Assembly: GCA_044222065.1 (NCBI GenBank)
Contig: JBGAOA010000027.1
Location: 1 to 52,551 of the forward strand
Source: Candidatus Eiseniibacteriota bacterium
Lineage (GTDB): Bacteria > Eisenbacteria > RBG-16-71-46
Reading direction: 5' to 3'
Length of the DNA: 52,551 nucleotides
Shown here: positions 39,001 through 42,000 of the stretch, piece by piece
How the letters are laid out: each line of letters begins with the position of its first letter
Position numbering within the stretch: position 1 is the stretch's first letter
Program-made: the position numbers

Positions 39001-42000
39001 CGCGTGATTTCTCGCGACGCGAAGTTTCTCGCGTGGCACGAAAAGTTCGTTTGTCGCGCGCCGCGTTTTCGCCTATCGTGCCGCTCACGATTTTGAGTAC
39101 AGCGCGCGCGCCGAACTTCACGCCTGGTTCGCTCCTCGACGCCGCGTCGTCATACCGCCGGGACTACGGGACCCGTCACCGGCGGCGCTGCCGAGGTGGG
39201 CGGCGAAGACACGAAGTTTGGCCGCAACAGACAGAGGCTGGTCGTAAGGCCGTCTTTGCGTTGGGGTGGAAAGGGAATTCCCGCCGCCCACCGGTCGTGC
39301 TGCGCGTCCGCGACACCAAAACTCGCGGACCTTCCGAGGGAACGGAACGACAGAAATGTCTCTGGGTGCACGCGCGCAGAGTTCGAGCCTCGTCGTGGAC
39401 GAGGCGCTGCGCGAGGTTCTCGCGCTCGGAATGCTCGAAGCCGAAGGCCTGAGCGGCCAGCCGCTCGGGCCTGATTTCTTGGCCGAGCGCGACGCCGTCA
39501 CGGCGCGCCTCGCGAGCGCCTTCGGCGGCCGCGCCCCCGCAGACATTCCGGGCGTGGCCGAGACGCGACGGCTCTTCCACGCGCTCGGCATGGACCCCAC
39601 GAAGACGCGGCCGAGCAGCGAGGCGCTGCTGCGCCGCGTGCTGCAGGCCAAGGGGCTGCCCTCGGTGTCGCCCGCGGTGGACGTGTGCAACCTGTGCTCG
39701 CTCGAGCAGCAGTTGCCGCTCGGGCTCTACGACCGCGATCGCGTGCGCGGCGACCTGCGCGCGCGCAAAGGGGCCGCGGGCGAAGGCTACGCGGGCATCC
39801 GCAAGGGCGTCGTGAACCTCGACGGGCGGCTGCTCCTCGCCGACGACTCGGGGCCGTTCGGCGCGCCGACCTCGGATTCCGCGCGCACCGCGGTCACCGA
39901 CGAGACCCGCAACCTGATCGTCGTCGTGTTCTGCCCCGTGGAGCGCGGCGGCGACGAACTGTCCGTCGCGCTCGAACAGATCGCCGCGCGCCTGTCGCAA
40001 TACTGCGGCGCGCACGTCGCCGCGGTCCGCGTCATCCACTGACGCGACACGGCGTCCACCACGCGGTTCTTGACCCGCGTTGCGGCGATCCGTAGCGTGC
40101 CCCGACCTTCGAACTCGAAGGACTCATCACACCGGCCCGCGACGCCCACCCCGCGCGCCTCAATCCAGGAGACACGCATGAAACGCAGCGCGTTGTTCGC
40201 GGCTGTCGCGCTGGTGCTGCTGCCCGCGATGGCGCAGGCGGGGAGCATCGGCATCGGCGGGTACGGCGGCATGAGCATCCCGATCGTCCAGGACGACAAC
40301 GGCAACGGCCCCGTGTTCGGCGCCCGCGCGCCGGTGGCGCTGAACAAGCTGCTCACGGTCGAGCCGTACTTCGCCTCGACGTCCGCGGGCGACGCCGAGC
40401 TGGAGATCGGCGGCATCAACTACACGCGCGACGGGCTCGACGCGACCGGCTTCGGCGCGAACGTGATGCTGACGTTCGGCGACCGCGTGAAGTTCTACCC
40501 GTTCGGCGGCTACGGCTCCTCGACGCTCACGCGCGACGGCTCCGCGGACGTGACGATGACCGGCTTCAACTACGGCATCGGGCTCGGCATCTCGCCGATC
40601 GAGAAGCTGACGATCCATCTGCGCGGCGAGGGCAACACGTACTCGAAGGACGACGCGGGCCGCACGTTCGGCATCGTGACCGTCGGCGTGTCGTACGACC
40701 TCTTTCCCATTCTCCAGTAGGAGGGCGTGACCATGAAGCGCTTCGCGAAGATCGCCGCCCTCCTCGCCGTCGCCGCGGTGCTGGCCGGAACGACGGGCTG
40801 TTTCAAGGTGCTCAAGCTGTTCTCGGTCGCGACCGGGAACCTGTCGGCGGTGAACGGCCCGACTTCGGCGGGCAAGTACATCGTGCTCGCGGACGAGAGC
40901 AGCGATTACGCCGACAACAAGGACAAGCTCAAGACGATCGACGAGTACGGGCTGCTCGGCACGATCAAGAACAACCTCGCGGCGCCGGTGACCGCCGAGG
41001 TGTGGATCGTCGAGAACCCGGCCGGCAGCGCGCTGCTCGGCGACAAGACCGCGGTGCAGAACGCGGGCGGCAAGAAGCTCCTGACGATGAATCTCGCGGC
41101 GAACGAGACGAAGCAGATCACGTGGGGCAATTCGTGGTTCGCGCTGTTCACGCCGGCCAACGATCCGGTCGTCGACGAGTTGTTGGGCGACGCGACGTTC
41201 ACGATCTACGTGTTCGGCAGCACCGCGACGTACGACATCGACGTGACGAACGCCGTGTTCTACGTGTCGGCGTACATCGGGAACCTGTTCTAGCCGCGAG
41301 CACGCGACGAAACGACGACGGCCGCTCCGCAAGGGGCGGCCGTTTCGCTTTCGGCGGTCCTTGCCGAACGCGCGCTGCGTGATCTTCACGCCGGGCGGAC
41401 TCTGGCGGCGCTTGTACTCGGCGCGGTCCACCATGCGCACGACGCGCTCGACGGTCGCGAGGTCGAAGCCGTCCGCGGCGATCTCCTTCGGCGAGCGGTC
41501 TTCCTCGACGTAGCGCTGCAGGATCGGATCGAGCACTTCGTAGGGCGGCAGCGAGTCCTGGTCGGTCTGGTTGTCGCGCAGTTCGGCGCTCGGCGCGCGC
41601 GTCAGCGTGCCCTCGGGGATCACCGCGCCGCGCTCGTTGCGGTAACGCGCGAGCTCGTAGACGAACGTCTTGTACACGTCGCGAATCACGGCGAAGCCGC
41701 CGGCCATGTCGCCGTACAGCGTGCTGTAGCCCACCGACAGCTCGCTCTTGTTCCCGGTCGTCAGCACGAGCCAGCCGAATTTGTTTGAGAGCGCCATCAG
41801 GTAGTTGCCGCGGATGCGCGCCTGCAGGTTCTCCTCGGTGATGTCGGCGGCCTTCCCGCTGAACGCGGGCTCGAGCGCGCGCAGGTAGCTCTCGAACACG
41901 CCTTCGATCGGAACCGAGTAGAAGCGCAGGCCGAGCGCGCGCGCGAGCGCTTCGGCGTCGGCCTTGGAGGCGCCCGACGTGTAGCGCGACGGCATCGCGA

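Follow-up and report, generated by a model that had tools for sequence, protein, structure and literature searches.

We describe a folded RNA of about 98 nucleotides, previously uncatalogued, in the leader of a stand-alone B3/4-domain gene of an uncultured Eisenbacteria family. The window analysed is a stretch of 52,551 nucleotides, and every feature given below lies on its forward strand. The predicted fold of 39196-39292 has an energy of -50.3 kcal/mol (z -4.91), and none of 200 shuffles was as good. In an alignment of 83 distinct rows, which was fitted to the model, holds one antisense duplicate and includes related rows that inflate covariation figures, 92.3% of cells are paired and 21 of 34 pairs change on both sides, a level reached by none of 500 shuffles and by no slid control. 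The motif core stays constant between flanks and spacers that have diverged freely. As to function, we tentatively read the motif as a CsrA-binding leader or decoy RNA, on the strength of a CsrA-type hairpin loop that is new here and that the first-pass annotation of the locus left out of its reading.

The RNA is closed by the 11-bp stem described in that annotation, P1, which pairs GGTGGGCGGCG at 39195-39205 with CGCCGCCCACC at 39282-39292 and begins one base before the 39196 given there; fold and alignment agree on it, it covaries, and its mean pair probability is 0.97. The U-A/C-G swap claimed for this stem recurs among 132 distinct motifs (U-A 89, C-G 31, U-G 12, C-A 0), which a tree of 67 proteins reduces to only about seven changes; a test of independent pairs gave p 1, resting on three pairs only. 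This P1 pair alone stood out in a mutual-information scan for tertiary covariation, the remainder looking like clade signal. The long hairpin P3 (39220-39267) varies freely yet keeps pairing, as had been proposed: its conserved base (GGCC/GGUC) forms all four pairs in 122 of 132 motifs, and its distal part shows two-sided changes in 7/7 pairs.

The short hairpin P4 (39268-39281) consists of a GGAA/UUCC stem under an ANGGAN hexaloop at 39272-39277, here AGGGAA, which is a candidate CsrA site. It had been called invariant, and it is constant in 38/38 protein-anchored loci except at two loop positions: position 2 is G in 108, A in 17, U in 6 and C in 1 of 132 distinct motifs, position 6 is U in 60, A in 37, G in 20 and C in 15, and the tree gives 9 and 20 changes at these two positions. 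The A, G, G and A of the loop never change in the 38 loci found by protein alone. The P4 helix shows zero covariation and a mean pair probability of 0.41. To the four-way junction of the first-pass annotation, which left one helix unnamed, we assign as P2 a more weakly supported 3-bp hairpin (GAC/GUU, loop ACGAA) at 39208-39218, with 77.8% of cells paired. Its RAC/GUU register is kept in 112/132 motifs and at least 3 bp form in 127/132, against a shuffle mean of 89 and maximum of 109; loops across the family include AUUGAA, AUGA, AUUGAG, AAUGAC and AAGA. The junction is likely rather than proven, because P1 and P3 covary while P2 is a modest 3-bp helix and P4 never varies. One genome, G015, has deleted most of P2 and P3 and retained P1 and P4.

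At least 90% conservation is found in 50 of 114 columns, compared with 60/119 for the TPP riboswitch and 97/206 for 6S RNA in the same family; the motif is thus conserved like a true riboswitch of these bacteria. We rejected a special meaning for the invariant P1 sequence, as TPP P1 and the 6S stem are equally invariant in the family. Searches against Rfam families, among them riboswitches, T-box, 6S, SRP and Csr/Rsm sRNAs, returned no motif match in the window at E up to 5 or in eight other diverse loci at E up to 10, in line with the earlier search. The motif is likewise undescribed in the literature searched, as had been claimed, and absent from the one supplement file of PMC8632094 examined; the supplement of PMC11109978, which lay outside the search, may bear on its novelty. 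Identity with 6S, SRP, tmRNA or tRNA was rejected, since separate canonical genes were found and ARAGORN returned nothing.

The RNA is present as a single copy in 58/59 genomes of the family. The claim that it precedes the B3/4 gene was confirmed in 30/30 leaders fetched by protein and in 8/8 further ones. Among 116 pattern matches in genomes, all 79 that carry the motif precede a B3/4 gene, and we set aside the other 37 as coding stretches or bare hairpins; in metagenomes 67 of 71 motifs precede the gene, three of the remaining ones lying at contig ends. A search of 91 genomes outside the family gave only two weak matches, both apparently coding; three weak model matches were read as coding or unrelated sequence, and no homologue was found in the viral contigs searched. 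B3/4 homologues elsewhere do not have this leader: 0/7 loci in other Eisenbacteria families and 0/27 other outside loci carried it, and an Rfam scan of 20 of 30 Bacilli loci found a tRNA only. The gene upstream of the motif, encoding a large protein with C-terminal GreA/GreB domains (36141-38873; PF03449, PF01272), is a neighbour outside the RNA, and such a greA-domain gene is found in 63/64 loci. The perfect linkage of motif and gene reflects inheritance of a single locus, to which the upstream greA is linked just as closely. As the motif is confined to one family, its general reach is limited.

The first-pass annotation gave the RNA its own promoter, and a conserved pattern speaks for this: of 120 loci whose upstream sequence reaches far enough, 94 have TT[G/T]-17-TA(T/A)(G/C)(G/T)T 61-141 nt before P1, the -10 being TATGTT in 52 of these and TATGGT in 32. 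On the other side, no site turned up in the window under a strict sigma-70 scan. The candidate boxes here are a -35-like TTGTCG (39051-39056) and, 17 nt past it, a -10-like TATCGT (39074-39079), which would place the transcription start near 39086. A variable 5' leader (39086-39194) follows, with unconserved hairpins and, in an alignment of 73 leaders, no family-wide consensus except the promoter. Beyond the motif a variable spacer (39293-39355) runs up to the start codon of the B3/4 gene (39356-40042); the distance from motif to start, first put at 37-123 nt, is wider, 18-197 nt with a median of 74.5 (n = 132 loci). The tail after the motif is enriched in U (0.39 versus 0.12). Downstream lies a gene for an outer-membrane beta-barrel protein (40178-40720; PF13505), a conserved neighbour in 47/66 loci. 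In genome G004 the RNA retains its promoter, and the B3/4 gene comes with a promoter-like site of its own, which is leaderless.

RNA data agree with transcription. Parts of the stretch (12-29% of its words) occur in 17 RNA runs from six studies, chosen for holding the stretch, and RNA contigs cover the motif in 4/4 runs that were mapped. They join motif and reading frame in 2/4, although such joins, with no DNA control, do not prove one transcript. Most of the B3/4 gene body is uncovered, and contigs of two studies stop at 39436-39438; because the runs were chosen for holding the stretch and contig depth cannot rank its parts, this pattern is not taken as evidence for or against attenuation. 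One of the contigs begins at 39002, ahead of the probable start, which leaves room for a contribution of DNA or read-through. The motif RNA is probably made as the 5' part of the ctdA-2-like transcript, apparently from its own promoter.

The annotation of the gene as a stand-alone B3/4 gene is correct: it encodes 228 amino acids with a PF03483 domain, and its best PDB match is CtdA (9f7e). The canavanyl-tRNA deacylase CtdA-1 is reported to use Y104, N105, E118 and C166 (parts of PMC12268091 and PMC12449066). Here the N105 equivalent is kept and those of Y104, E118 and C166 are C, Y and G, for which reason we rejected a canavanine-type identity; C111, N112 and Y125 are present in 68/68 family proteins, with G at the C166 position. 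The CtdA-2 clade of Bacillota, Chloroflexi and archaea, as outlined in PMC12449066, keeps N105 and G116 and lacks C166. The family protein resembles it in length (about 228 amino acids), in keeping the N105 and G116 equivalents and missing that of C166, and in having close Bacilli homologues (39-50% identity over matched parts), and by this residue pattern we tentatively class the gene as CtdA-2-like.

The CsrA reading starts from P4. The form proposed for a high-affinity CsrA site is an ANGGAX hexaloop that caps a stem directly and in which N and X are flipped out (PMC4005645, in its account of the site); the P4 loop has this form, its N and X positions are those that vary, and the stem beneath it is predicted. 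CsrA is encoded in 80/86 family genomes, and this genome's own CsrA aligns gap-free to solved CsrA/RsmE. FliW, its usual protein inhibitor, was found by Pfam, which could miss a divergent FliW, in 0/86, compared with 3/3 and 8/9 genomes of sister families (11/12 together, the 8/9 including the unpublished G038); the family seems to have lost it. Genomes with CsrA are described as nearly always carrying either FliW or a BarA-UvrY/sRNA system (PMC4682653, in part). CsrA-type recognition seems to be alive in the family, because flagellin leaders keep hairpins with AGAA, AGGA or AUGGA loops, at least one in 18/19 and two in 13/19, one of them over the Shine-Dalgarno sequence. There are also signs that the RNA is independent of the gene: the lack of an expression platform, the U-enriched tail, the G004 arrangement, and the G015 deletion that leaves P1 and P4.

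Under the CsrA reading, a compact protein-binding RNA would be transcribed from its own conserved promoter at the 5' end of the ctdA-2-like transcript, and P1 and P4 would stack as one helix presenting the hexaloop. Its most likely binder would be CsrA, kept by the family while its antagonist FliW is not found. The RNA would sequester CsrA as a decoy, freeing other targets such as flagellin mRNA, and might in addition couple the downstream gene's translation to free CsrA. In CsrB/CsrC, RsmY/RsmZ and CsrA target leaders (hcnA, hag) the same hexaloop with free N and X sits on a stem (PMC4005645, in part), and the motif shares with the Csr/Rsm sRNAs its own promoter and a host with CsrA and no detected FliW. 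It differs from them in having one site rather than many, an A-U closing pair and a sequence-conserved multi-helix junction, and in lying in an mRNA leader outside the Gammaproteobacteria without an Rfam match.

Several observations weigh against CsrA. The motif has one canonical site, whereas 13-22 are given for CsrB/C (PMC6546359, in part). The closing pair contacted by CsrA is C-G (PMC4005645, same account); that of P4 is A-U in 82/82 distinct rows, partly forced by the search pattern, and in 30/30 protein-anchored rows. Flagellin sites are mostly GAA and switch between GAA and GGA, and P4 never switches. CsrA binding leaves about 45 other conserved bases unexplained. One other family (f11) has CsrA in 38/41 genomes and FliW in 0/41 yet no motif, and three small families likewise lack both FliW and motif. 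ANGGAN hairpins are not enriched genome-wide (3.2% versus 2.5-3.1% for control loops), nor is A.GGA elsewhere in the leader (17/81 versus 19 in shuffled upstream sequence; 7 versus 7 in the spacer). A second AGGGAA hexaloop hairpin lies in the spacer of this genome at 39332-39347, adjoining the ribosome-binding region; across the family a second CsrA-type site near the B3/4 start is not enriched (11/132 loci versus 9/48 control starts). A model predicts few Eisenbacteria CsrAs to be active on the Bacillus hag leader (PMC13443453, in part). We looked for a CsrB-like multi-site RNA in this genome and found none that convinced. The RNA was gained once and FliW lost once, both on a single branch, which makes their coincidence no statistical test. 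P4 itself, at a pair probability of 0.41, is a predicted hairpin rather than a proven one.

It is a doubtful further step that the family replaced FliW by a single-site, four-way-junction CsrA-antagonist RNA that a tRNA-proofreading gene carries as its leader, coupling CsrA control to translation quality control. If true, it would be an RNA-based Csr circuit of new architecture outside the Gammaproteobacteria; binding of CsrA would in itself bear on CsrA control in bacteria without FliW or CsrB-type RNAs.

A new riboswitch class is somewhat less likely: the junction and two A-rich loops would form a pocket for a small ligand and control the ctdA-2-like deacylase gene in cis. The best guess at this ligand would be an amino acid that is mischarged or non-standard, or else a signal for such an amino acid. 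The RNA lies in a 5' leader always before the same gene (79/79 genome and 67/71 metagenome motifs), and the gene must be read through it, since a second promoter-like site intervenes in 2/132 loci only and the spacer is 45 nt or less in 8 of 132. It combines a conserved, aptamer-like core, covarying except in P4, with a freely varying arm. CtdA (COG3382) genes, moreover, are often under guanidine riboswitches, whose classes I to IV are likewise structured leader RNAs (PMC10018355 and PMC3766115, in part); the motif differs from these in lacking an Rfam match and a terminator and in serving one gene in one family rather than many. Guanidine itself is a poor guess, because this CtdA-2-like protein lacks the canavanine-pocket residues. 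Of the riboswitch-like cis-regulator first proposed, the new structured RNA in a transcribed leader stands, but we found no expression platform. Terminators are lacking (at least five U in 8 nt in 16/132 loci), pairing with anti-P1 or anti-Shine-Dalgarno elements does not exceed shuffles (mean z +0.11 to -0.36, n = 81), Shine-Dalgarno exposure is unchanged with P1 blocked (0.38 versus 0.37), and no C-over-G skew for Rho loading appears (0.344 versus 0.345), although these tests could miss a platform that is kinetic or depends on Rho. An anti-P1 element seen by eye near the transcription start was discarded as not above shuffles. The motif is also limited to one gene, one locus and one family rather than several non-homologous genes or phyla, and homologues in Bacilli and other Eisenbacteria lack such a leader. 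The family's TPP riboswitch lies 10-49 nt from its promoter, without a U-rich tail and with conserved downstream sequence; the motif lies 61-141 nt from its promoter, has no such conserved sequence downstream, and carries a U-enriched tail more like that of 6S RNA. Should the RNA be a riboswitch, the identity of its ligand would indicate what CtdA-2 deacylases act on, as guanidine switches did for CtdA-1.

Less probable is a stable non-coding RNA that stands alone, released from the leader by cleavage or terminated inside it, and that acts on a partner other than CsrA, with the B3/4 gene a passenger on the same promoter. Single copy in 58/59 genomes, the G004 arrangement and motif coverage in 4/4 RNA runs suit it, as do closed ends, a variable 5' leader and a U-enriched tail resembling those of the family's operon-embedded 6S RNA (3/20 tails in that comparison were mis-anchored). 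Like 6S RNA (RF00013), the motif is a single-copy RNA closed by a GC-rich stem and followed by a pyrimidine-rich tail; unlike it, it has half the length at 98 nt, is no rod of about 180 nt with a central bubble, and has a deletable long arm (G015). Canonical 6S is encoded elsewhere in this genome (63.9 bits) and in 20/22 other family genomes, and SRP, tmRNA and tRNA-Sec also lie elsewhere. The RNA is, however, never seen apart from the B3/4 gene, contigs continue into the frame, and it was not found behind greA in 25 outside-family genomes (best E 0.55).

It is rather improbable that the motif is a cloverleaf resembling tRNA which either senses tRNA or is bound by the B3/4 gene's own product. 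The thrS operator is a precedent for such autoregulation. The order of a 2-nt linker, 3-bp arm, long arm and short arm stacked on the closing stem fits, as does the tRNA-editing-domain gene downstream, and the 8 invariant pairs of P1 together with the 4 of P4 would add up to the 12 bp of an acceptor/T helix. But ARAGORN finds nothing, UUCRA T-loop, D-loop GG and CCA end are missing, helices without variation are usual at this depth (TPP P1, 6S stem), no platform lies near the Shine-Dalgarno sequence, and CtdA reportedly discriminates by the aminoacyl moiety (PMC12449066, in part). T-box and tRNA-like leaders share the place upstream of an aminoacyl-tRNA-linked gene and the cloverleaf-like helix order; the motif lacks an Rfam T-box match, in most copies the UGGN bulge, and any terminator, T-loop or CCA consensus.

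The least likely reading is an inverted repeat in the DNA, or a terminator-like hairpin, that has no function as RNA and is kept by common descent. It could draw on the shallow phylogeny, on the lack of variation in P4 and most of P1, and on unrelated genomes (L103, L115, L136, L174) in which bare hairpins carry identical P1/P4 letters. It is largely refuted by P1 and P3, where pairs swing to G-U or change on both sides, by flanks that diverge around a constant core, and by RNA coverage of the motif. About 130 distinct natural variants of the RNA are available, and it is small enough for direct probing.

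The leader of the stand-alone B3/4 tRNA-editing-domain gene g01687 (39356..40042, plus strand) carries a folded, conserved, single-copy RNA. In the window, its closing stem P1 is formed by GGTGGGCGGCG (39195-39205) and the complement at 39282-39292, and the 3' end of the motif lies 63 nt from the ATG at 39356 that opens the 228-aa B3/4-domain gene. The motif has a folding energy of -50.3 kcal/mol (z -4.91), beating 200 of 200 shuffles, with the helices in the order P1 (11 bp), a linker of 1-2 nt, P2 (3 bp), the long hairpin P3, P4 (4 bp, 6-nt loop), and P1 again. Across 83 distinct rows, 92.3% of cells are paired and 21 of 34 pairs show two-sided changes, exceeding every shuffled and slid control, in an alignment that was fitted to the model and whose rows are related. 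One P1 pair is U-A in 89, C-G in 31, U-G in 12 and C-A in none of 132 distinct motifs; a tree of 67 proteins places about 7 changes at this pair, and an independent-pairs test, with 3 pairs, gave p = 1. All 7 pairs of the distal part of P3 covary, P2 reaches 3 bp or more in 127 of the 132 motifs versus 89 in shuffles, and the P4 helix is invariant (mean pair probability 0.41). RNAalifold recovers P1, the P3 tip and P4 and does not recover P2; a four-way junction is our best model of the motif, short of proof. Among 114 columns 27 are invariant and 50 conserved at 90% or above, on par with the TPP riboswitch and 6S RNA of the same family of uncultured Eisenbacteria, so helices without any variation are to be expected at such a depth.

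With the B3/4 protein as sole query, 38 strong places turned up in 37 family genomes, and the motif was present at all 38 (30/30 and 8/8). Of 59 other family genomes searched with a covariance model, 58 carry it, usually as a single copy, and the sole exception also lacks the B3/4 gene. Outside the family, 2 of 91 genomes matched the covariance model weakly (E about 0.05), in what reads as protein-coding sequence; several outside-family tallies, including the protein and covariance-model searches and the 6S, CsrA and FliW counts, take in the unpublished genome G038. Scanning all GTDB genomes with a pattern returned 116 matches, comprising 37 coding stretches or bare hairpins and 79 whole motifs, every one of which precedes a B3/4 gene, recognised by tblastn for 78 and from the reading frame for 1. 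A metagenome pattern that imposed no P1 requirement gave 72 matches, 71 of them motifs, with the B3/4 gene downstream in 67 and three of the other four at contig ends; no motif was found in viral contigs. The motif was absent from 7 of 7 B3/4 homologues in other Eisenbacteria families, from 27 further B3/4 loci (26 from Bacilli), and from the region behind greA in 25 outside genomes, and B3/4 leaders outside the family are short on inspection. Rfam has no match over the motif in the window, as the first-pass annotation had reported, nor in 8 diverse relatives, and titles and abstract openings in the literature yielded no description of it, one relevant supplement lying outside this scope. The motif is outside every family tested, and in its working would resemble either a riboswitch aptamer or an RNA with a CsrA site.

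The locus runs from greA through the promoter and the RNA to the B3/4 gene and then to a beta-barrel gene (greA in 63/64, barrel in 47/66). A promoter-like TT[G/T]-17-TA(T/A)(G/C)(G/T)T lies 61-141 nt 5' of P1 in 94 of 120 loci, 18-197 nt separate motif and start codon, and a second promoter-like site intervenes in 2 of 132. RNA contigs cover the motif in 4 of 4 metatranscriptomes, joined to the reading frame in 2, and are of a kind from which no RNA ends, strand or level can be derived. Many leaders, L002, L004 and L008-L014 among them, share a conserved GTCAAG some 60-70 nt upstream of the -35 box; it reads TTGAC on the minus strand and may be a divergent promoter directed into the greA end.

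We tentatively favor a CsrA-binding leader or decoy. Stacking of P1 and P4 would expose the P4 loop to a protein partner, CsrA being the likeliest candidate, and the RNA may act as a CsrA decoy, perhaps also as a cis anchor. The P4 loop is A-N-G-G-A-N, its four fixed bases constant in 38 of 38 protein-anchored loci; at positions 2 and 6 every base occurs, with 9 and 20 changes on the tree of the 132-motif set, where the search pattern imposed the fixed bases. An ANGGAX hexaloop seated immediately on a stem is the proposed high-affinity CsrA/RsmE site (PMC4005645). CsrA is present in 83 of 89 family genomes (80/86 in a second count), and FliW in 0 of 86, against 3/3 and 8/9 in the sister families; no more than 21 of 61 family genomes have flagellin. 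Of 346 CsrA genomes, 340 have FliW or BarA-UvrY (PMC4682653). Several observations weigh against this reading. Another family, f11, has CsrA in 38 of 41 genomes, FliW in 0 of 41 and no motif, and other FliW-less families are likewise motif-free. Eisenbacteria CsrA is predicted to show low activity on the hag leader (PMC13443453). ANGGAN hairpins show no genome-wide enrichment, and no second CsrA-type site is enriched at the SD of the B3/4 gene. The motif offers just one site, closed by an A-U pair, and its conserved core far exceeds what CsrA binding requires. In favor of the reading, family flagellin leaders keep CsrA-type hairpins (18/19, with two sites in 13/19) and are CsrA-type two-site leaders with GAA in place of GGA; that these sites are mostly GAA and the P4 loop GGA counts against it. 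In flagellin leaders L385-L411 and L197 one hairpin sits about 50 nt and another about 20 nt 5' of the start, the latter covering the SD, and the loops are AGAA(N), AGGA or AUGGA; such leader hairpins are missing from the window's own genome. The csrA gene at G000:C121:9151-9309 (L080) has a promoter ending in GCCGATA, which we take to be sigma-28-like.

A new riboswitch class is possible, if somewhat doubtful. The closest solved relative of the B3/4 protein is CtdA; guanidine riboswitches often lie upstream of CtdA-1 genes (PMC10018355) and COG3382 is under ykkC control (PMC3766115), a precedent for a riboswitch here, not for a guanidine ligand. CtdA requires Y104, N105, E118 and E191 (PMC12268091); all 68 family proteins have C, N and Y as the equivalents of the first three, and C166 aligns with an invariant G, a residue pattern that fits CtdA-2, the uncharacterised clade of PMC12449066. 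Among the criteria applied to riboswitch candidates in PMC7736828 are a spread over several phyla, association with several genes and a terminator; our motif has none of these, occurring before a single gene in a single family, and no expression platform was found. U makes up 39% of the 8 nt after P1 versus 12% of the remaining spacer, with at least 5 U in only 16 of 132; the P1 and P4 strands pair no better than shuffles with upstream, downstream or SD sequence (n=81), and blocking P1 leaves SD exposure at 0.37, versus 0.38 with the motif. The earlier proposal of a new cis-regulatory candidate is partly supported, for its structured leader RNA more than for its regulatory half: with one shared locus order, motif and gene became linked once and were inherited together, which says little for control in cis. 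The family TPP riboswitch, in contrast to the motif, lies 10-49 nt from its own promoter and has conserved sequence downstream of the aptamer; the 8 nt that follow P1 hold 0.27 U there, about 3.1 in the motif and 3.85 in 6S RNA. A conserved CGAAGACAAGCGAG follows the aptamer at L225 and the family TPP loci, and its first bases match the ones that follow the 5' strand of P1 in the motif, probably a coincidence. The 6S RNA at G000:C26:38462-38655 (L031) is canonical, just behind pheT and a short gene, and in 18 of 20 family loci 6S RNA has no promoter-like site of its own.

A stand-alone RNA with a partner other than CsrA seems unlikely, and genome G004 argues for it: there (L025/L123, G004:C174) the RNA and its promoter sit behind a TPR-like gene, not greA, apart from a B3/4 gene with its own leaderless promoter-like site 9 nt 5' of the ATG. 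Still less probable is a tRNA mimic bound by the B3/4 protein, for which the thrS operator offers an analogy. That the motif has no RNA function is very hard to credit, given two-sided changes in P1 and P3.

Folding of window positions 47879-48186 revealed no element in common with the motif. In another family, at G055:C42:129823-133261, the order is reversed: greA follows a B3/4 homologue at a distance of about 2.4 kb, both on one strand. A 64-nt variant (L024:1373-1444, genome G015) has lost most of P2 and P3 and keeps P1 and P4 intact, and L263 has an altered, shortened P1 3' strand. Bare intergenic hairpins in unrelated genomes (L115:1201-1222, L136, L103, L174) have P1 fused straight to P4 with an ANGGAN loop, by chance or as a related minimal element.
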